Source: a virus. From it: a stretch of DNA of 64,000 nucleotides. The position numbers and the translations under genes are program-made. The stretch spans positions 23,566 through 87,565 of IMG/VR virus record IMGVR_UViG_3300046674_000395, one strand, 5' to 3'. The notes beneath the pieces are model-generated. The model did no database searches. It was not told the origin of the DNA and was given only the letters and a program-made list of their open reading frames with translations. Below are positions 46,738-61,158 of the stretch, piece by piece (within the stretch, counting starts at the first letter, position 1; every line of letters starts with the position of its first letter).

Positions 46738-47216
46738 GCCGTCACCGCCGCGTGCTTGCAGGGCCAACGGTTGCCGCACGCGCACCAGTGGCATCCGTCC
46801 GCCGGGTCCGGCACCTTGTCGTAGTGCTGTGACTCGGGGGCCTGCCCGGCTTCGGCATCCTCGGTCCAGCCGCCGTGAGTCCAGTCATCCGGGTCGAGGG
46901 CGGTCGGATACCAGCCGTGGATGTCGTGGGCGGGCCCGTACATCCAGCCGAGCGCGCGACGTTCACCGGTGCCAGGGCTGGGGCTGATGGCCTCGCAGCG
47001 GAACTCCCGCGTGCCGCTGGTGTAGTTGCGGTCGACCTCGAAGAAGCCGGGGTCGGGCAGCATCCGCAGGTTGTTGGGGCGGACAGCACCACGGCTGATC
47101 TTGGATGCAATCACCGCCACCGTGTCGGCCTGCGCTCGGCCCTCGCGGGTACCCTCGGCGCGAAACTCGCGGGCCTTCTTCACCAGCCACGCAGTGACCT
47201 CGGGGTAGTTGCTCAT
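46734..47216 (-). CDS. hypothetical protein
   Basis: ATG 47216 (MSNYPEVTAWLVKK...); C-terminal CHWCACGNRWPCKH. Confidence 0.55.
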   Translation of the reverse strand: MSNYPEVTAWLVKKAREFRAEGTREGRAQADTVAVIASKISRGAVRPNNLRMLPDPGFFEVDRNYTSGTREFRCEAISPSPGTGERRALGWMYGPAHDIHGWYPTALDPDDWTHGGWTEDAEAGQAPESQHYDKVPDPADGCHWCACGNRWPCKHAAVTA

Positions 47217-48013
47217 GCCACACCGCCGTTCCTGCGCTGCTGCGGGAGGCGGACGACCTGTGCACCCGGCAGTGCCGGCCGGTTCCTCGACGGCAGGCCA
47301 TCGCGCTCCAGCGCGTCGTGGATCTCCTGACGCAACTTGTCGCGGCCTGTGGTCAAGCACTCGCGGAGCCGCTCGGCCGCCTTCGCGTGAAGGTCTTCGA
47401 GGACGAGGGAGTCCTGCTGCAGGTTCACAAACTCGACTACGTGCGCCTTGATCTGCTCATGGACAGCAGGTGAGAGCTGGCGCACCTCGTTCTCACTCAG
47501 TCCGAAGTAGTCGCCGAGCAGGGCTCGCTCGCGAGCGGTGCCCTCAGGAGCGGGGAGAGACACCCGCTCTGGCAGCAAGATCGATCGGCCATCGAGCAGT
47601 GCCATCAGGCTGCGGCGCTGCGCTGCCGTTGCCCGCTGCGTGCGCTCGTGCTCTTCGCGGTCGCCGCGCAGAAACTCCAGCGAGGACGCGTAGTCGCGGA
47701 CCGTCTCGAAGGGGATTCCCGTGAAGTACTCGCGTCCGCCGGAGTTCCTCGCACGCTTGGCGCAGAAGCCGATCAGAGCTGTTTCGTTCTTGATCGCCCC
47801 CGCATGAGGTCCTGAAAGCCAGGTGTGTACTAGCGGGTTGCCATAGGCCTCGCCGTGGTGCTTGTGCAGCCCGATGCGCCGGTCTGGCGCGGCGGTGCGA
47901 CCGACTTTCACAATGCCGGACTCGAACCCGAGCACGTAGATGTGGGCTTCAACGCCTTTGATCAGGGGGGCGTCGAACGGACTTGATCCGTCCGATGGGA
48001 TGATGGAGGACAA
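47213..48013 (-). CDS. T5orf172 (GIY-YIG-like, MUG113-type) domain protein
   Basis: HIYVLGFESGIVKVGRTAAPDRRI...NETALIGFCAKRARNSGGREYFTGIPFETV; paralogous to the N-terminal half of 53437-54069. Confidence 0.72.
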   Translation of the reverse strand: MSSIIPSDGSSPFDAPLIKGVEAHIYVLGFESGIVKVGRTAAPDRRIGLHKHHGEAYGNPLVHTWLSGPHAGAIKNETALIGFCAKRARNSGGREYFTGIPFETVRDYASSLEFLRGDREEHERTQRATAAQRRSLMALLDGRSILLPERVSLPAPEGTARERALLGDYFGLSENEVRQLSPAVHEQIKAHVVEFVNLQQDSLVLEDLHAKAAERLRECLTTGRDKLRQEIHDALERDGLPSRNRPALPGAQVVRLPQQRRNGGVA

Positions 48014-48727: not shown

Positions 48728-48816
48728 AGACGAATCGTCTACCAATCTGGACGACGTACCGCGCGGTATCGGCAAACTTTCTGGCTGGTTACCATGCTTC
48801 TGTAGACGATCCGTCT
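48728..48816. promoter_or_regulatory. two operator-like palindromes in the divergent immunity region
   Basis: agacgaatcgtct 48728-48740 and agacgatccgtct 48804-48816 (AGACG-N3-CGTCT). Confidence 0.65.
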
Positions 48817-49968: not shown

Positions 49969-51357
49969 GTGGCGGGGTACATCGAAGACCGCTGGATGAC
50001 GAGGAAAGCGGATCCAGCGACCGGCAAGAAGCGTCGGACCGCACGCTGGGGGCAGGGGAAGCGTTGGCGGGTCGCCGGCGTCCCTGGCGTGCGGGACCGG
50101 TCCTTCACCAACCTCAAGGGCCCTGACGGGGCTGAGAAGTGGCTAGCCGACTCGCAGACGGATACGAGCCGCGGCCACTTCTACGATCCACGCGACGGCA
50201 ACATCACGCTGCGGGAGTACGTCGAGCAGACGTGGTGGCCGACGCTGCGGAAGGCGCCCGGCACCAAGCAGTCGATGAAGCCTCGGGTCTTCAATCACAT
50301 CCTTCCCCACGTGGGGCATCTGTCGCTGAACCGGATCGGGCACGACGAGATCCGGGTCTGGCTCACCCGGGTCGAGCAGGACATCGACGTGAACACGGTG
50401 CGCACGACGTGGCGCCATTTCTCGACGATCATGCAGGCGGCGCACAAGGCCAAGAGGATTGCCGAGAACCCGTTCAGGGATGAGGACTTGTCGGCGCCGG
50501 CGGCGCCTCCGTCCAAGGCGAAGGCGTGGCCCAGGGAGACAGCTGCTGCGGTGCGGGCCGAGTTGGGTCCCCGGTACGGGATCCTTGTGGACCTCGCTAC
50601 CGGGGCCGGGCTGCGGCAGGGGGAGTGCTTCGGCTTCTCGCCGGACGACATCGACGGCGACGAGATCCATGTGACCCGTCAGATCGTGCGGATCAATAGC
50701 CGTCTGGCGTTCGCGCCTCCGAAGCGCGGCAAGCTCCGCGACGCACCCTGCCCTCCGGAACTGGCCCGCGCCGTCAAGGAGTACGCGAATGTCTTCCCGA
50801 CGGTCGAGGTGACGCTGCCCTGGGTGGACCCGGACCGGCCGAACCTGGAGTGGGACAAGCGTCCCCTGCGGACTGTACGTCTCCTTGTGACCACACCCAG
50901 GACCGGCGGAGTCAGCGGCGGCGCACTGAACCGGGCGACGTGGGACGACAAGGCGTGGAAGCCGGCGCTCGCCCGTGCGGGCGTCATCCCGGAGCCCGAG
51001 GTCGAGTACGTGCAGGCGAACGGGAAGAAGCCGTGGCGCCGGGTGGCGTGGCGGATGCCGCGGGAGGACGGCTTCCACGTCACGCGGCATACGTTCGCTA
51101 GCATCGTGCTGTCGGAGGGTGAGACAATCACTCAGCTGGCTGCGTGGCTCGGTCACTCGGATCCGGCGTTCACGCTGAGGACTTACGTGCACTTCATGCC
51201 GAAGTCCGGGAAGCGGGCGCTGGCTGCGCTCGGCTCGTGGATGTCCCCAGGTGGGGGCGGGACCCGAGCCGCTGAGGCCGATCAGGCTGTTGAGATCTCT
51301 CCCGGTTCTGATTCTCCCCAGATTCTCCCCAGCGAAGATCTGGATCAAGGAATCTAG
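49969..51357 (+). CDS. int: tyrosine integrase (phage/AICE type)
   Basis: GTG start; N-terminal YIEDRW...DPATGKKR arm-binding type; catalytic GLRQGE (R), HVTRHTFAS (HxxR), LGHSDPAFTLRTYVH (H...Y). Track ORF 50143-52107 is an antisense artefact. Confidence 0.93.
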   Translation: MAGYIEDRWMTRKADPATGKKRRTARWGQGKRWRVAGVPGVRDRSFTNLKGPDGAEKWLADSQTDTSRGHFYDPRDGNITLREYVEQTWWPTLRKAPGTKQSMKPRVFNHILPHVGHLSLNRIGHDEIRVWLTRVEQDIDVNTVRTTWRHFSTIMQAAHKAKRIAENPFRDEDLSAPAAPPSKAKAWPRETAAAVRAELGPRYGILVDLATGAGLRQGECFGFSPDDIDGDEIHVTRQIVRINSRLAFAPPKRGKLRDAPCPPELARAVKEYANVFPTVEVTLPWVDPDRPNLEWDKRPLRTVRLLVTTPRTGGVSGGALNRATWDDKAWKPALARAGVIPEPEVEYVQANGKKPWRRVAWRMPREDGFHVTRHTFASIVLSEGETITQLAAWLGHSDPAFTLRTYVHFMPKSGKRALAALGSWMSPGGGGTRAAEADQAVEISPGSDSPQILPSEDLDQGI

Positions 51358-51582
51358 CCTTACCTCCCAGGTCAGGGAGGTAAGTGGCAGACGAGTCGGG
51401 CTGTACGCCGGGTTCTGTCGCCCGGTCGCCTTCCACCTGCGGTGCTTCAGCGGGATCTTCGGTGCACTGCCCTGACCTGTGGAGACGGGTGGTGACGAGT
51501 TGAGACGGGTGGTGACGGAGTCGGTTCGACCAGGTCTCCCCGGCCGCTCCCCACGGCATGTCCTCCCCAGATTCTCCCCGCG
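51309..51582. repeat. integrase-proximal repeats: candidate att/arm sites
   Basis: gattctcccca x2 at 51310-51331. 17-mer ctccccagattctcccc at 51314-51330 and 51563-51579. 13-mer tggatcaaggaat at 51341-51353 (also at 709-721). gagacgggtggtgacg x2 at 51482-51497 and 51502-51517. Confidence 0.7.
51359..51384 (+). terminator. hairpin immediately after the int stop
   Basis: cttacctccc 51359-51368 / gggaggtaag 51375-51384, perfect 10-bp stem. Confidence 0.7.
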
Positions 51583-51620
51583 CGTCCGCCTTGCCGAGGA
51601 CGTGCGACCTGCGAGAAGGC

Positions 51621-51860
51621 CTAGTGGTGCGTCTCGCAGGCGCCTCCCGGTACGTACTCGCTCCCCGAGCGGGCCGCGGACTCCCGCCGCGTGTCTTCGA
51701 TAGCGATCACGCAGTCCTCGCAGCCGCGGACTTCCTTCTCGCCGTCCGCTCGGGGGTGCACGATGCCGACCACGGCCGTGGGGACTTCGCCTCGCTCGGG
51801 ATGTCGGAAGCAGCTCCCGGAGGCCCATTCGTAGAGGTCGAGGATCTGCTGTCGTTCCAT
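51621..51860 (-). CDS. hypothetical protein
   Basis: ATG 51860 (MERQQILDLYEWASGSCF...), 79 aa. Confidence 0.5.
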   Translation of the reverse strand: MERQQILDLYEWASGSCFRHPERGEVPTAVVGIVHPRADGEKEVRGCEDCVIAIEDTRRESAARSGSEYVPGGACETHH

Positions 51861-52085
51861 GCCGGCTCCCGTTGGCGGTGCGGATGTTGAGGTGGGGGGT
51901 GGTGCGCTGCTGCCCGACCTGTTCAACCGAATGCAGGTGGGAGGGGTTGTTCACTCGATCGAGCGAACATATATTCGATTTCAGGACACTACCTGGAGCC
52001 CTGCGCCATCTGCCATAGCGCAGGGCTGGGCGATCAAGATCACAGAAAGCCTGGTACCACCAGGCTGACTCATGATCGTCTTGGG

Positions 52086-52337
52086 TTGAGCGTTTGTCGA
52101 GTGACATCCGACCCGCCAGACGACGACCTCCGCGAGGAGCGGCAGCGCATCGGCAGGTCCATCCGCAACGCCCGCATGGACGCCAACCTCACCCAGGAGA
52201 AGGTGTTCCTGGCGATCCCGCTCAACCGGGCCTACTACCAGCAGATCGAGAGCGGCGTCGCTAACCCGTCACTGAACACGCTGCTGCGGATTGCCCGCGT
52301 CTTAGGCGTGCGCATCGCCGACCTCCTCCACGGCTGA
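52086..52337 (+). CDS. XRE-family HTH regulator
   Basis: IGRSIRNARMDANLTQEKVFLAIPLNRAYYQQIESGVANPSLNTLLRIARVLGV; start uncertain (TTG 52086 or GTG 52101). Confidence 0.75.
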   Translation: MSVCRVTSDPPDDDLREERQRIGRSIRNARMDANLTQEKVFLAIPLNRAYYQQIESGVANPSLNTLLRIARVLGVRIADLLHG

Positions 52338-52559
52338 CCTGCCGCAACGGCTGCTTCCAGTCGCGTGACTGACCAAGATTCAAGCGCACCGTAATCGGTT
52401 ACGGAAGAGCATGCGCCGTACATATCTTCACGCCGCCCACACATCGGTAACCCTGCATTCACCTTCGGTCGAAGCCGTGGCCTGCACATACCCGGGCAGA
52501 CCATGACACCGGTATCCATAGGCGGCACACAGAACCTCCACAGCAACCTGACCCGTGAG

Positions 52560-52892
52560 TCAGGAAGCCTCGGCCGCCAGCGTCTGGCACTGCTCGGCGA
52601 GCCGGCCGACCTGTATCGCCGCGGACAGCAGGCCGTGGCCGAGACCGGCGTCCAGGGTCTCCCGCGCCTCGCCGACGATGGCCCGCAGCCGGTACCACTC
52701 CCGGGTCCGCTCCACGGCCGCATCGGCCCGCGCCTCGACCGGCGGCAGCAGCTGGGCGACACGGTCCCGTAAGGCCCGGTCGAGTTCCTCGCAGCGCTCC
52801 CGGCGCGGCAGCATCTGCCGGGCGCCGATCGCCTCGTCGATGAGGCTGGCGAGGGTCTGGTCTGTGGCTGGCTGGTCCGTAGGGTGGGGCAT
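52560..52892 (-). CDS. hypothetical helical protein
   Basis: ATG 52892 (MPHPTDQPATDQTLASLIDEAIG...), 110 aa. Confidence 0.52.
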   Translation of the reverse strand: MPHPTDQPATDQTLASLIDEAIGARQMLPRRERCEELDRALRDRVAQLLPPVEARADAAVERTREWYRLRAIVGEARETLDAGLGHGLLSAAIQVGRLAEQCQTLAAEAS

Positions 52893-53054
52893 GTCGACGC
52901 TCCGTTCGTCGGCTGCCTCCGGGACTGCTGGGCCGCGGTCTCGGAGGCGCGTGCAATTGCAGGCTACCGCTACACACTGCCTCATACCGCTACATGGCGC
53001 ACCATGCCGCCTCCTGCGGACGCGCACAGATGCAGGTCGCCATACGTTGCTGGC

Positions 53055-53315
53055 ATGGATGATCAAGCGTCGGTGGTGGATCCGAAGTCGCCCGTGTACG
53101 TCTACGTGCAGGTCGCCGACGACATCCAGGCCCGCATCAAGCGTGGCGAGCTACAGGCCGGCGCGCGGCTTCCCGGAGAGCGGGAGCTCGCCGACCAGTA
53201 CCGGATCGCCTACGGCACAGCCCGCCGCGTCATCCAGGAGCTTCGGGATCGCGGCCTCGCGCAGACCGTGCCGAGCAAGGGGACGTTCATCGTCGGGCCG
53301 GCCCCCGAGGGCTGA
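53055..53315 (+). CDS. stand-alone GntR-type wHTH protein (no effector domain)
   Basis: ATG 53055; YVQVADDIQARIKRGELQAGARLPGERELADQYRIAYGTARRVIQELRDRGL. Confidence 0.75.
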   Translation: MDDQASVVDPKSPVYVYVQVADDIQARIKRGELQAGARLPGERELADQYRIAYGTARRVIQELRDRGLAQTVPSKGTFIVGPAPEG

Positions 53316-53436
53316 TCGGATCTCGCGAAGCCCCATGGGGGCGCCGTCTCCGCAGGTAGAATCGGGGAAAATAGGACGGCCCCCGCTGGTGCTACGAACA
53401 CCGAACGAGGGCCTCACCAGAGGAGTGTTGGTCCTC

Positions 53437-54069
53437 ATGGCTACACGTCAGGCTACCCCGGCCAAGTTGCCGCGCACGTCGCCCCTCGGCTCTTACATCT
53501 ACGTGGTGCACTTCAACGTAGGCGTTGTAAAGGCTGGCTTCACTCGAAGGCCAAGCGAGCGCATCAGCAGGTACCGATGGGACCTTTCCCCGTTTGGGAT
53601 CACGATCGACGATCTCTGGATCTCGGAACCGCATGGCCAGGCGAAGGACAACGAGAAACTGCTTCTCGACTTCTGCCGTGCGCGAGCTGACCAGGTGCGC
53701 AAGGTCGAGTACTTCACCGGGATCGACTTCCAGGAAGTAGTGGCTTTCGCCGGCACGCTGCCCTACGTGCCCCTCCAGCCGCCGCACGTCGCTCCCGTGC
53801 CGCCTCGTCCAGCCAGACAGGGGTCCGAGCCGATCGAGGAAGGGTCTGTGACTCCATATCGGCAACTCGCCGAAATCCTGAAGGCCCGCATACAGCGCGG
53901 AGACTGGCAGCCGGGGCAGGCCGTCACCTCCGAGACCCGGCTGGTCCAGGAGTACGGGCTGGCCCGGTCCACAGTGCGGCGGGCGATCGCCGTGCTGGCC
54001 GAGGAGCAGACCGTGTGGACTGTGCAGGGGCGCGGCACCTATGTGGGGCAGCCTCCCGTCGAGGGCTGA
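53437..54069 (+). CDS. T5orf172 (GIY-YIG-like) domain fused to a C-terminal GntR-type wHTH
   Basis: YIYVVHFNVGVVKAGFTRRPSERI...EKLLLDFCRARADQVRKVEYFTGIDFQEVV, then YRQLAEILKARIQRGDWQPGQAVTSETRLVQEYGLARSTVRRAIAVLAEE; ATG 53437. Confidence 0.72.
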   Translation: MATRQATPAKLPRTSPLGSYIYVVHFNVGVVKAGFTRRPSERISRYRWDLSPFGITIDDLWISEPHGQAKDNEKLLLDFCRARADQVRKVEYFTGIDFQEVVAFAGTLPYVPLQPPHVAPVPPRPARQGSEPIEEGSVTPYRQLAEILKARIQRGDWQPGQAVTSETRLVQEYGLARSTVRRAIAVLAEEQTVWTVQGRGTYVGQPPVEG

Positions 54070-54114
54070 CATGCCGAAGCCCCGCACGGTGGCGGGGCTG
54101 GCGGACGACGCGGC

Positions 54115-54360
54115 TCAGGCGAGGCGCTTCGGCTCTTCGGGTCCATTCGGACCACCGTTCTCGAACTGCGAGTGCTGCCAGACCTCGCCATTCGGTTCGA
54201 CTCGGATGTATGCGCGGCAGCGGGGCGCGGACGGCTCGAAGTCGAGCCCGTAGTAGCGGGGGGTCAGGAACTGGGTGGCGCCTTCCGCGCTGGCCACGGC
54301 CGTCGCCATGCGGATCATCCCGGCCCTGTCGGCGCACTTCGCTCGAACCCTGCTCGCCAT
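54115..54360 (-). CDS. hypothetical protein
   Basis: ATG 54360 behind GGAGAAGGA; 81 aa. Confidence 0.5.
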   Translation of the reverse strand: MASRVRAKCADRAGMIRMATAVASAEGATQFLTPRYYGLDFEPSAPRCRAYIRVEPNGEVWQHSQFENGGPNGPEEPKRLA

Positions 54361-54481
54361 TTCCTTCTCCCCTGCTCGCCGTTCGTTTCTGTTTAACAAG
54401 AATGACGCACACGCCACCTCTTGTCAACGCATCACGCCAGATGGATGCTAGATTCTGTTAAACACTTACTGAGGGGGAGAG

Positions 54482-54670
54482 ATGGGACGACCCGCCACAG
54501 GGCAGACCAAGGTCATGGGCTTCCGACCGCCCAAGCCGCTGCGTGACGAGTTCGAGGCGCTCGCCGAGATCGAGGAACGCACGCCCTCCGACGCGCTCAT
54601 CGAAGCCATGCACGACTGGATCAAAAAGAAGCAGCGAGATCGCGGGGTGCAGCCTCCCATCGAGGGCTGA
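54482..54670 (+). CDS. possible ribbon-helix-helix (CopG-like) protein
   Basis: KVMGFRPPKPLRDEFEALAEIEERTPSDALIEAMHDWI has a beta-strand/helix/helix layout. Confidence 0.52.
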   Translation: MGRPATGQTKVMGFRPPKPLRDEFEALAEIEERTPSDALIEAMHDWIKKKQRDRGVQPPIEG

Positions 54671-54813
54671 CCGATGCTGGCGCGGTGCCGGAATTGAACC
54701 GGCATTTCCCGAGCTCACCTTGGGAGCGGGTCTCAGGCGTTCTGACGTTGAACTAGCCGCAGGCTCAAGGCTCCCACATTCCACCTGTCCGACCCGCGTC
54801 CTAGACTGGCCGC

Positions 54814-55008
54814 ATGATCCCCACTCCCCCACCTCCGGGCCCTGTGCGGCCTGCTGCTGTGGTGAATGAGGAGATCCGCGAGTTGCTCACCGAGGCTGGC
54901 GGCTGGCTGTACGGGCCGTCGCGACAGCGGTACGAGGTGCTCGTCGCCGAGTGGACGGTGGCAGTCGCGGCGGAACGGCTACGCGAGGACATCGTGAAAG
55001 CGGCGTGA
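54814..55008 (+). CDS. hypothetical small protein
   Basis: 64-aa ORF. Confidence 0.42.
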   Translation: MIPTPPPPGPVRPAAVVNEEIRELLTEAGGWLYGPSRQRYEVLVAEWTVAVAAERLREDIVKAA

Positions 55009-55070
55009 CGCTACGCTGCCACGGCGATGCCCCGCCTGCCTTCTACAGGCGGGGCATCAGGGTCGGCGGG

Positions 55071-59359: not shown

Positions 59360-60472
59360 TCAGTCGTGGGTGGGTTCAGCCGCGGAGTCTGCCTGGGATG
59401 CCTCCACGCGCAGCATGCTCAGCGCGCGGGCGCGTGTCCCGTCGCTGGTCCTCTTGCCCGCTCTCCTGAGGCCGACCTTGCGATACTTCTCCACCATCTC
59501 GGTGCTGGACCAGTCTCCAGTGATCTCCTTAATCTCTCCGGCCGTGTAGCCGTTAGCGCCAAGATCGGTCGGCACGCCAGCCCGCAGACCGTGGGCGGTG
59601 ACATCGGAGGCGACGTCCAGCTCGGCCTTCGCGGCGATCTGCTTGACGAGTACGTTCACGGCCTGCCTCGTCAGCCCCCACCCCTTCGGGCTGATCGGCC
59701 CCAGATTCCCCCACTGATCGACAGTTCGAAGCAAGGGCAGGTGGCGTCCGCCCTGGCCGGCCTGTGCGAGTTCGGAGATCCATTCACGAACGGCCGTGAG
59801 GCAGGCAGGGTCATCGATTTCGTACTCGCGCCCGTCGTCGGACTTGTCGTTCTTGCTCACCCGCTTCACCGCCACGAGGAGCTCCGCGCTGACGAACTCC
59901 AGATCACCTATGCGTAGTTGCGAGAGTTCGGACGCGCGAGCGCGCATGTAGTAGCCGAGGAGCAGGAGGGCCTGGTCACGCTTCCCTGCGGCGGTCTCTG
60001 TGTCGCACGTCTTGAGCATCAGGCGCAGGCGTTCCAAGTCCAGAGGGGCGGAGGACTTCTGACCGCGACCTGCCTTCTGCCAGACATACCTGTGATCCTG
60101 GTAGATCTTCAGGGCGGCTGCCTGGTCGGGGTGCTGCTCATATCCGGCTCGCGCGTTCATGTGCCTGACGGCGGCAATGCTCAACCGCAGAACCCCGGGT
60201 TGCGTGTCCCGCCTGCGCAGGTAGGAGATGTACGAGGTGAGGTTCTGTTCACTGGTAGGCGGCCCTGGAGTACGCCCGCTACTGACGCACCAGCGAGCGA
60301 ACGCCTTCCAACGATCCTGGTAGGTGAGGCGCGTGTTCTCACGCCCGCTGTTCGCGAGATCTTCGGAGGCTTCCGCGGTGAGGGTGGCGTTGATGTCGAC
60401 GGCAACCGGCAGGCTCTCCACGGCAGGGTCGACGAGTTCGGCTTCGTGGACGATCTCGACTTCGGTGTTCAT
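59360..60472 (-). CDS. tyrosine recombinase (XerC/D- or integrase-like)
   Basis: SAM-like N-domain (TYQDRWKAFARWC); catalytic YYMRARASEL (R), HGLRAG (HxxR), STEMVEKYRK (Y). Confidence 0.87.
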   Translation of the reverse strand: MNTEVEIVHEAELVDPAVESLPVAVDINATLTAEASEDLANSGRENTRLTYQDRWKAFARWCVSSGRTPGPPTSEQNLTSYISYLRRRDTQPGVLRLSIAAVRHMNARAGYEQHPDQAAALKIYQDHRYVWQKAGRGQKSSAPLDLERLRLMLKTCDTETAAGKRDQALLLLGYYMRARASELSQLRIGDLEFVSAELLVAVKRVSKNDKSDDGREYEIDDPACLTAVREWISELAQAGQGGRHLPLLRTVDQWGNLGPISPKGWGLTRQAVNVLVKQIAAKAELDVASDVTAHGLRAGVPTDLGANGYTAGEIKEITGDWSSTEMVEKYRKVGLRRAGKRTSDGTRARALSMLRVEASQADSAAEPTHD

Positions 60473-61158
60473 ACGGTGAGCCGTTCAACTGCGGACTGGA
60501 TGACGCCTCCCGGGTCGGCCATCGCGATGCGGTCCTCCATGGACTCGTAGAAGAGCAGCCAGATGTCACTCGATCCATAGGGCCAACGGGCGACGATCCC
60601 ACCCTCGGCGAGGTGCAGGAAGGTTCGCGAGGCGTCGGTGTGACCAATCTCCAGGGGCGCGCAGTTCGTCCAGGAGCACAGAGGGTGTTCGGACTCGTTT
60701 CCGTCTCCGTCGATCCACGGCATCACGCTGTCGCCGTCCCAGGAGAGGAGCGCGTCACCGTCGTGGCTGTTTCCTTCGTAGACCTCGGCGGCGAACTCGG
60801 CCGGCAATCCTTCGGTGAGGCGCCTTTGGTTGCCGTCCCGGTCGGCATCCCTGCCGGGTGCGGCGTCCACCGGGATGGTCAGCTTGGTGACCTTGCCTGT
60901 GGCCACCAGGTAATGGACGCGTGAGTAGGCAGCGACCTGCCCGTCGGTCCAGCCGCCGTAGGGCTGTCCGATCGCGTTGGTGTACTCGATGCCTGCGCGG
61001 TCCTCGATCATGTTGCGGTAGCTGGCTATGAGCGAGCGTCCTTCACCGGTCTCGCGGAGCTTCCTGGCGTAGTTCTCTGAGATCTGCGCGTGCATCGCTC
61101 GCCCCATGCGGGCCTCCGGGATGTTGGCGGATTGGTGCTGACAGCCTATCAATCTCAC
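60469..61158 (-). CDS. hypothetical protein co-transcribed with the recombinase
   Basis: 229-aa ORF; stop overlaps the recombinase ATG; true start may be ATG 61107. Confidence 0.58.
   Translation of the reverse strand: MRLIGCQHQSANIPEARMGRAMHAQISENYARKLRETGEGRSLIASYRNMIEDRAGIEYTNAIGQPYGGWTDGQVAAYSRVHYLVATGKVTKLTIPVDAAPGRDADRDGNQRRLTEGLPAEFAAEVYEGNSHDGDALLSWDGDSVMPWIDGDGNESEHPLCSWTNCAPLEIGHTDASRTFLHLAEGGIVARWPYGSSDIWLLFYESMEDRIAMADPGGVIQSAVERLTV

Follow-up and report, generated by a model that had tools for sequence, protein, structure and literature searches.

The window analysed here is a stretch of 64,000 nucleotides of high-GC DNA, corresponding to bases 23566–87565 (the last 64 kb) of the 87,565-bp viral record IMGVR_UViG_3300046674_000395, and it carries two adjacent genes, A and B, whose products share a GntR-type winged helix. 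Gene A (53055..53315, plus strand) encodes a stand-alone winged helix of 86 residues, and gene B (53437..54069, plus strand) encodes a 210-residue protein in which a T5orf172/GIY-YIG-like domain is followed by a linker and a winged helix of a different type. With a probability of about 50%, B is a free-standing homing-type or rival-excluding site-specific nuclease that is aimed by a regulator module from rival phages and spares its own genome. B lies in an insertion cassette, its winged helix is a module shuffled with the resident regulators of related phages, and at none of the 14 loci compared do A and B share a winged-helix type. These three features would be explained if B cuts rivals of matching type, as we propose.

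According to this proposal, the N-terminal T5orf172 domain of B would be catalytic, and the C-terminal GntR winged helix, tethered by a flexible linker of about 25 residues, would recognise the target. The winged helix would be a copy of the resident A regulator of other related Streptomyces phages and, in a rival genome, would bind the operator repeats that precede this gene, at a distance of a few hundred bases from the slot occupied by the B cassette. Cleavage close by and repair templated by the genome that carries B would then propagate the cassette and exclude rival markers. The carrier would be spared because its own A and the operators of A belong to another type, which would account for the rule that A and B never match. 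A itself would bind the tandem TACCGC repeats at its own promoter as an ordinary autoregulator, rather than being an antidote made for B, and a separate promoter together with a leader that buries the ribosome-binding site would keep B under tight control.

Exchange of winged-helix types at a fixed slot

Three main types of winged helix can be distinguished among the A and B proteins, with at least 60% identity within a type and at most 45% between types, and each type is seen both as a resident A and inside B. The window combines A of type II with B of type I, and locus L001 combines A of type I with B of type II. A of type I is paired with B of type III in L009 and L011, A of type II with B of type III in L024, and A of type III with B of type I in L008, L034 and L037 or with B of type II in L035 and L036. 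In L004, A is of type III and the nuclease-like domain is joined to types I and II in tandem in one chain of 320 residues. At the DNA level, A of the window shares 87–89% identity with the 3′ ends of the B genes of L001 and L035, and the winged-helix DNA of B in the window is 79–84% identical to A of L001, L009 and L012. A G+C-rich hairpin directly after the stop codon of B (54079..54098, plus strand), a probable terminator, is common to the window and L001, and window positions 54050–54098 are 92% identical to L001 6581–6629 despite the different winged-helix types. Across 14 distinct GntR-fusion loci, a GntR-only gene of 81–103 residues lies directly upstream of the fusion on the same strand in every case, in agreement with the paired occurrence expected by the initial annotation, and the type of A differs from that of B in 14 of 14. 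Since their winged helices are never of the same type, A and B are unlikely to share sites.

The region before A has the same layout in all loci, namely a palindrome followed by short type-specific repeats. In the window, the conserved palindrome TGCAATTGCA (52952–52961, plus strand) is followed by two direct copies of TACCGCTACA (52965–52974 and 52985–52994, plus strand), which are candidate operators of the type II winged helix. Type II repeats are tandem or paired (A)TACCGC, and paired TACCGC occurs solely before type II/II′ genes (the window, L024, L038, L067, L070 and gene 11 of the Streptomyces satellite MulchRoom). Type III repeats are three GTATAGG-like copies, and type I repeats are TGTATCGGCCTGTCT and CGATAC. 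The repeats track the type of A, not that of B, in B-carrying and B-less phages alike, and the type I repeats stand upstream of the resident type I gene in the B-less loci L061, L063, L066 and L081. A is a probable autoregulator. No type I repeats occur in the complete genome of the window phage, whose B is of type I, and a search of this phage and of two further complete phage records found no type I operator-like sites outside A promoters; a single CGATAC pair, in G404, falls within a coding sequence and probably arose by chance. From this distribution we infer that the type I repeats of rival phages would be the target of B.

A perfect 12-bp palindrome, TACCGCGCGGTA, lies at 48757..48768 in the repressor/cro intergenic region, between two AGACG-N3-CGTCT sites. 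It is made up of two type II half-sites in inverted orientation and overlaps one GTATCGG. By an estimate from base composition, the genome would contain about 0.01 copies of this 12-mer, and the palindrome is a possible second candidate site for A. It may link A, and possibly B, to the lysis–lysogeny switch.

B belongs to an insertion cassette of 1,469 bp (53316..54784, plus strand) that is absent from the close, otherwise collinear relative L070. A blastn comparison aligns window positions 50500–53315 with L070 169–2967 at 81.7% identity and positions 54785–55058 with L070 2971–3245 at 84.7% identity, so that the edges of the insertion are exact: it begins after the last base of the A stop codon (53315) and is followed by the promoter of the next gene. 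Besides B with its putative promoter and its leader, the cassette contains about 700 bp of unassigned DNA. Its right half (54070–54784) holds two small open reading frames (54115–54417, minus strand; 54482–54670, plus strand) with a coding-like GC pattern and no family match. The right edge of the slot is marked by a conserved gene of 64 residues without a Pfam match (54814..55008, plus strand), which in B-less phages is directly preceded by the resident winged-helix gene. A locus search anchored on this gene yielded 25 related viral loci. The nuclease-like domain is present in two of them. In at least 11, a winged-helix gene stands alone; it belongs to type I, II, III or another type and ends about 40 nucleotides before the 64-residue gene. 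B therefore shows the presence/absence polymorphism at a fixed site between collinear genomes that characterises homing genes.

The related phages mostly carry A without B, and A is the resident small regulator of the phage and the ancestral gene at the locus. B itself is rare: its domain subfamily was found in one of 401 Streptomyces genomes searched, and its approximately 20 close clusters all come from Streptomyces or soil metagenomes. A metagenome scan for further loci returned none, and a viral scan with the domain profile returned one.

The nuclease-like domain and its known relatives

The T5orf172/GIY-YIG-like domain of B spans residues ~19–110 (nucleotides 53491–53766), and the type I GntR winged helix spans residues 140–203 (nucleotides 53854–54045; Pfam E 4e-14). 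AlphaFold2 modelling of B gives a confident beta-beta-alpha-beta-alpha domain, a disordered linker (residues ~112–137) and the winged helix. The N-terminal domain, with strands at residues 19–26, 30–36 and 57–62, helices at 39–53 and 69–83 and a predicted local distance difference test score of 88, has the topology of the GIY-YIG type. A matches Pfam GntR (PF00392) at E 6e-16, has no other Pfam match and ends seven residues after its winged helix, which is 37% identical to that of B (E 2e-12). Both genes have the codon-position GC typical of coding DNA, with values at the third and second positions of 0.86 and 0.46 in A and 0.79 and 0.49 in B. The initial annotation is thus confirmed in treating both as real genes and in assigning a GntR-type winged helix to each. 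Neither protein has a C-terminal effector-binding or oligomerisation domain of the FadR, HutC/UTRA, MocR or YtrA types, and they are GntR-type DNA-binding modules rather than full GntR regulators.

A profile of the N-terminal domain, built from five copies, matches 1,600 representative proteins, and B with its 149 best profile matches formed a set of 150 homologues. Of these, 48 match the T5orf172 family PF10544 at E<=1e-3 (best E 7e-7), two match GIY-YIG and two match MUG113, and their partner domains are HTH_3/17/31, RHH, Bro-N and P22_AR_N. One fusion protein 47% identical to B carries a precomputed PF10544 match. Residues Y22, K32, G34, R42, W61, E73 and E91 are invariant across the 150 homologues. 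K32, G34, R42, E73 and E91 are also invariant in an alignment of 24 sequences that holds fusion proteins, in which Y22 is nearly invariant, the exception being one sequence truncated there. Foldseek comparison of the N-terminal domain with BFVD gave 23 matches at E<=1e-3 (best 4e-5), and the named ones are predicted viral T5orf172, Bro, CapR-homology, GIY-YIG and MUG113 proteins; the full-length model matched through its GntR part alone (the DNA-binding domains of YvoA, AraR and DasR, E ~1e-5). A family-profile search of the PDB placed three GIY-YIG proteins at the top, namely 1zg2, 2wsh (T4 EndoII) and 1ywl. HMMER alignments to these structures put Y22, K32–G34, R42 and position 46 (Y/H) at the GIY, YIG, Arg and His positions, and E73 would be equivalent to E75 of I-TevI by its position in helix 2. 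Homologues in Gordonia phages have been labelled GIY-YIG endonucleases by SEA-PHAGES annotators. Because homologue matches, fold comparison and PDB profile matches agree, the N-terminal domain of B is accepted as a divergent T5orf172 subfamily of the GIY-YIG superfamily.

The initial annotation did not recognise the pair as a named system. It fits the described pattern of T5orf172 homing endonucleases and of the Odn and CapR proteins (PMC10448857, PMC8263062, PMC8096241). T5orf172 genes of ICP1, T5-like and other phages are homing endonuclease genes with shuffled and repeated DNA-binding modules (Barth, Dunham & Seed 2023, PMC10448857). Like B, they combine a terminal T5orf172 domain with separable DNA-binding modules at the opposite end, they are present or absent among related phages, and they lie at boundaries of genetic exchange. 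Their modules are repeated and shuffled between genes as "beads on a string" (PMC10448857), as in the tandem type I and II protein. They differ from B in their DNA readers, which are CapR/DUF723/DUF4397 zinc fingers or RepA_N rather than GntR winged helices, and in their position near essential genes of lytic phages, whereas B lies in an accessory region next to attP in temperate actinophages. The rule seen here, by which the type of the resident neighbour always differs, has no described precedent.

Odn (Gp88) of Vibrio phage ICP1 is a proven nuclease that needs a conserved Glu (PMC8263062). Like B, it joins a T5orf172 domain with conserved Arg and Glu to a DNA-binding domain that is copied from a competitor and aimed at the cognate site. 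Its reader, however, is N-terminal and comes from the replication initiator of a satellite, and its cutting has been shown experimentally, whereas cutting by B is a prediction. CapR of the PLE satellite is a repressor and a stand-alone homologue of the DNA-binding modules of T5orf172 nucleases (PMC8096241), and its relation to these nucleases resembles that of A to B. Unlike A, CapR is a zinc-finger protein thought to be derived from nucleases (PMC8096241). Because the resident A is widespread without any nuclease, the direction is probably reversed here, with the DNA-binding module of the nuclease deriving from the resident regulator.

The order of nuclease, linker and DNA binder in B is shared with I-TevI and T4 Seg. 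In these proteins a flexible linker connects a GIY-YIG-type domain at the N terminus to a C-terminal binder containing a helix-turn-helix; they carry out intronless homing that excludes nearby markers, and their expression is tightly controlled. B differs from them in its GntR winged helix and in its motif, which is of the T5orf172 kind and has Lys where they have the second Tyr, and it falls outside the canonical GIY-YIG Pfam family.

T5orf172 nucleases of homing and competition with swapped DNA readers are therefore known, and the novelty of B is modest: it lies in the GntR modules, in the exchange of three types with a resident regulator and in the rule that A is never of the type of B. If B cuts at the borrowed site, it would be an actinobacterial counterpart of the ICP1 Odn/CapR pair that is re-aimed by capturing the repressor module of a rival. 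The locus would then offer a simple testable rule, that the resident type never equals the nuclease type, with three interchangeable specificities whose candidate operators are present in the sequence. It would also make testable how homing nucleases gain new targets and shape mosaic boundaries, and would supply small modular DNA-reading domains with candidate sites for Streptomyces genetics. A wider interpretation, which we put forward as tentative, is an allelic "rock-paper-scissors" contest at one locus, in which each phage keeps one of at least three regulator types with the operators that match it, the nucleases that some phages carry with the module of another type cut the operators of rivals and convert the locus, and no carrier can have the type against which its nuclease is directed. 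Phages, and perhaps their satellites, would then engage in a natural form of sequence-specific warfare with multiple alleles, built from repressor modules.

Alternative explanations

Several points weigh against B being a nuclease of this kind. B itself gives no Pfam match to PF10544 even at E<=10, and the NCBIfam assignment also failed; the T5orf172 label of the initial annotation thus fails as a direct match and is consistent with the homologues, the fold and the PDB profile matches. A Foldseek search of the N-terminal domain against the PDB gave nothing significant, with UvrC, UPF0213, Hpy188I and EndoII at E>1. The second Tyr of the motif is Lys in B, as in T5orf172 domains generally, and the chemistry could differ. 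The permutation test of the A-not-B rule over 13 loci gives P 0.023, a value that overstates independence as the loci are related, and the operator assignments, which are candidates, rest on repeats and their covariation with type. The fusion of types I and II in one chain can also be read as modules that act side by side and cooperate on a composite site, and the GTATCGG half-site in the immunity region of the phage itself would suit a regulatory role for B.

These points bear on the main rival interpretation, that B is a domesticated, non-cutting regulator whose T5orf172 domain binds DNA or protein and which acts with A on composite sites, for example in the lysis–lysogeny switch. T5orf172 was originally predicted to be a DNA-binding domain and is frequent in regulators of the Bro/KilA type, and relatives of homing endonucleases can become repressors, as CapR did, while I-TevI is also an autorepressor (PMC8096241). 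TACCGCGCGGTA together with GTATCGG forms a type II site abutting a type I-like half-site in a phage whose A is of type II and whose B is of type I, and the pair adjoins attP at the prophage end, where genes expressed in the lysogen often sit. We nevertheless regard this interpretation as rather doubtful. The full set of catalytic-type residues is kept across the 150 homologues and in all fusions, and the domain is an insertion that is missing from most relatives, which still keep A. Apart from the one half-site, the genome of the phage contains no operator-like repeat of type I, and domestication of the CapR type loses the nuclease domain, which is kept here. If B is merely a regulator, the finding is an ordinary one.

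B could instead be an Odn-like anti-satellite nuclease that recognises a satellite or integrative element through a winged helix resembling the regulator of that element, and destroys it in the course of infection. A chimera of precisely this kind is known in ICP1 Odn (PMC8263062), and the stand-alone GntR helix-turn-helix protein of MulchRoom (gene 11, ~89 residues; L039 8100–8427) is 62% identical to A and thus to type II, with the same paired TACCGC before its gene. However, the B of the window phage is of type I rather than type II, a type I satellite was not found, and all three types are resident in full-size related phages at the same locus, so that satellites are not needed as targets. 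This makes an anti-satellite function improbable. The MulchRoom gene differs from A in lying next to a tyrosine integrase in a 14.8-kb satellite, where it belongs to the lysogeny module (PMC10690885). This type of regulator is common to satellites and full-size temperate phages. The GIY-YIG gene of MulchRoom was considered as a relative of B and proved to be unrelated.

The initial annotation regarded targeted exclusion or homing as possible functions, of which the homing or exclusion nuclease is now the best supported, and it noted that A and B look like a two-gene targeting/anti-targeting pair with a competing binder. A toxin–antidote or defence pair in which A competes for the sites of B and so protects the carrier is highly improbable, because, although a small GntR-only gene always stands directly upstream of the B-type fusions and the same kind of winged helix occurs in both proteins, their types always differ, A is ancestral and occurs alone in most related phages and one satellite, the repeats follow the type of A, a hairpin and a putative promoter separate A and B into distinct transcription units, the distant relative L016 with the same leader and domain and a non-GntR tail has no GntR-only neighbour, and no defence model of PADLOC-DB is matched by A, B or the paralogue of B at 47213–48013 at E<=0.01.

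Leader of B and genome setting

The spacer between A and B is more conserved than the surrounding genes. It contains a hairpin after A, GCCCCATGGGGC (53330–53341, plus strand), which is kept at other loci with different sequences, and a −10-like TAGAAT (53357–53362, plus strand), conserved in the spacer of all loci, which would be the promoter for B's own transcript. A three-helix leader of ~70 nucleotides (53375..53436, plus strand) is conserved before B, and its helix 3 pairs the Shine–Dalgarno GAGGA and the AUG. The covariance model R1 scores 86.9 bits at the leader of the window. An alignment of 29 leader sequences shows six compensatory pairs and a covariation score of 0.137, compared with 0.053 in shuffles, none of 500 of which reaches it; the score is also above every slid control, the alignment having been fitted to the model, which favours structure. 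The folding energy of the leader alone is unremarkable (z −0.9). Hairpins that hide the ribosome-binding site limit the expression of homing endonucleases in phages T4 and Aeh1, and the leader may act on B in this way.

The leader was also considered as a new RNA family, which was rejected in part, its best matches being to Rfam scr4677 (RF02673). The leader of the window matches the 3′ third of this family (model positions 171–217 of 246; E 0.1) and differs from its members in being a truncated copy, with 16.1 bits against a threshold of 41. The leader model matches 133 of 151 Streptomyces genomes, and the chromosomal copies found with it score 69–121 bits against RF02673. The best chromosomal matches lie directly before HTH_36-like (SCO4676-like) genes of ~300 residues and end exactly at the start codon. 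The first residues of these SCO4676-like proteins (MA.x.P) resemble those of B (loci L050–L060). scr4677 has been published as a small RNA antisense to the start of SCO4676 (PMC3896431), whereas the present model treats the leader as part of an mRNA, on the sense strand. The position of the chromosomal copies suggests that the scr4677 locus encodes a conserved mRNA leader, instead of or in addition to the small RNA, and that mobile genes have captured it. The core of the leader is also found in three Solirubrobacterales metagenome contigs (L017:1558–1628, L018:2015–2085 and L021:2507–2577), with compensatory changes in helices 2 and 3, about 150 nucleotides upstream of excisionase-like and 432-residue recombinase-like genes. 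Therefore, the element is not confined to Streptomyces or to nuclease genes.

The 87,565-bp record has a direct terminal repeat of 127 bp and a completeness rating of 100%, and a relative is collinear with it from int through A. The record is therefore one complete genome of a temperate phage of the Streptomyces type, not a set of separate elements. The idea that A and B form part of a second island, with the three genes that encode T5orf172 or winged-helix domains divided between two elements flanking the integrase, is therefore rejected; all three belong to this single viral record. The DNA of the supposed island is phage DNA to the right of attP, since the collinearity with the relative starts within the integrase gene and extends through A. 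Where relatives are integrated, host genes adjoin an XRE gene situated two genes to the left of A, and the A–B pair therefore lies at one prophage end. In some relatives a third GntR-like protein, of 209 residues and with a C-terminal domain (L001:3792–4421 and L008:6548–7177), is encoded between the integrase or host flank and the A–B pair. The 23 kb outside the window contain large minus-strand genes, including an open reading frame of 1,546 residues; judging by gene order and size, we regard them as probable tail and head genes. ARAGORN found no tRNA in the window, and an exact-repeat search of the window for att sites gave just one 17-mer, near the end of int.

At 59360–61158 (minus strand), the same phage genome encodes a second tyrosine recombinase (Pfam Phage_integrase E 4e-16), and the gene upstream of it encodes 229 residues without a family match. 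This recombinase may act in dimer resolution, in inversion or as part of a second integration system.

The paralogue of B, a protein of 266 residues encoded on the minus strand at 47213..48013 by the second gene of the leftward early operon, combines the same nuclease-like domain with a different, helical C-terminal half. The homology noted in the initial annotation is clear (BLASTP E 2e-20; 36% identity over 104 residues), and the best PF10544 match of the paralogue has an E of 0.11 and 13.5 bits against a cut-off of 20. At its two ends, over the first ~12 and the last 32 residues (88% identity), the paralogue matches proteins of 300 residues from other phages, which one source names DnaD and whose interior is unrelated to that of the paralogue. 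This suggests that the interior of a resident early gene may have been replaced in frame by the nuclease-like domain at a fixed slot.

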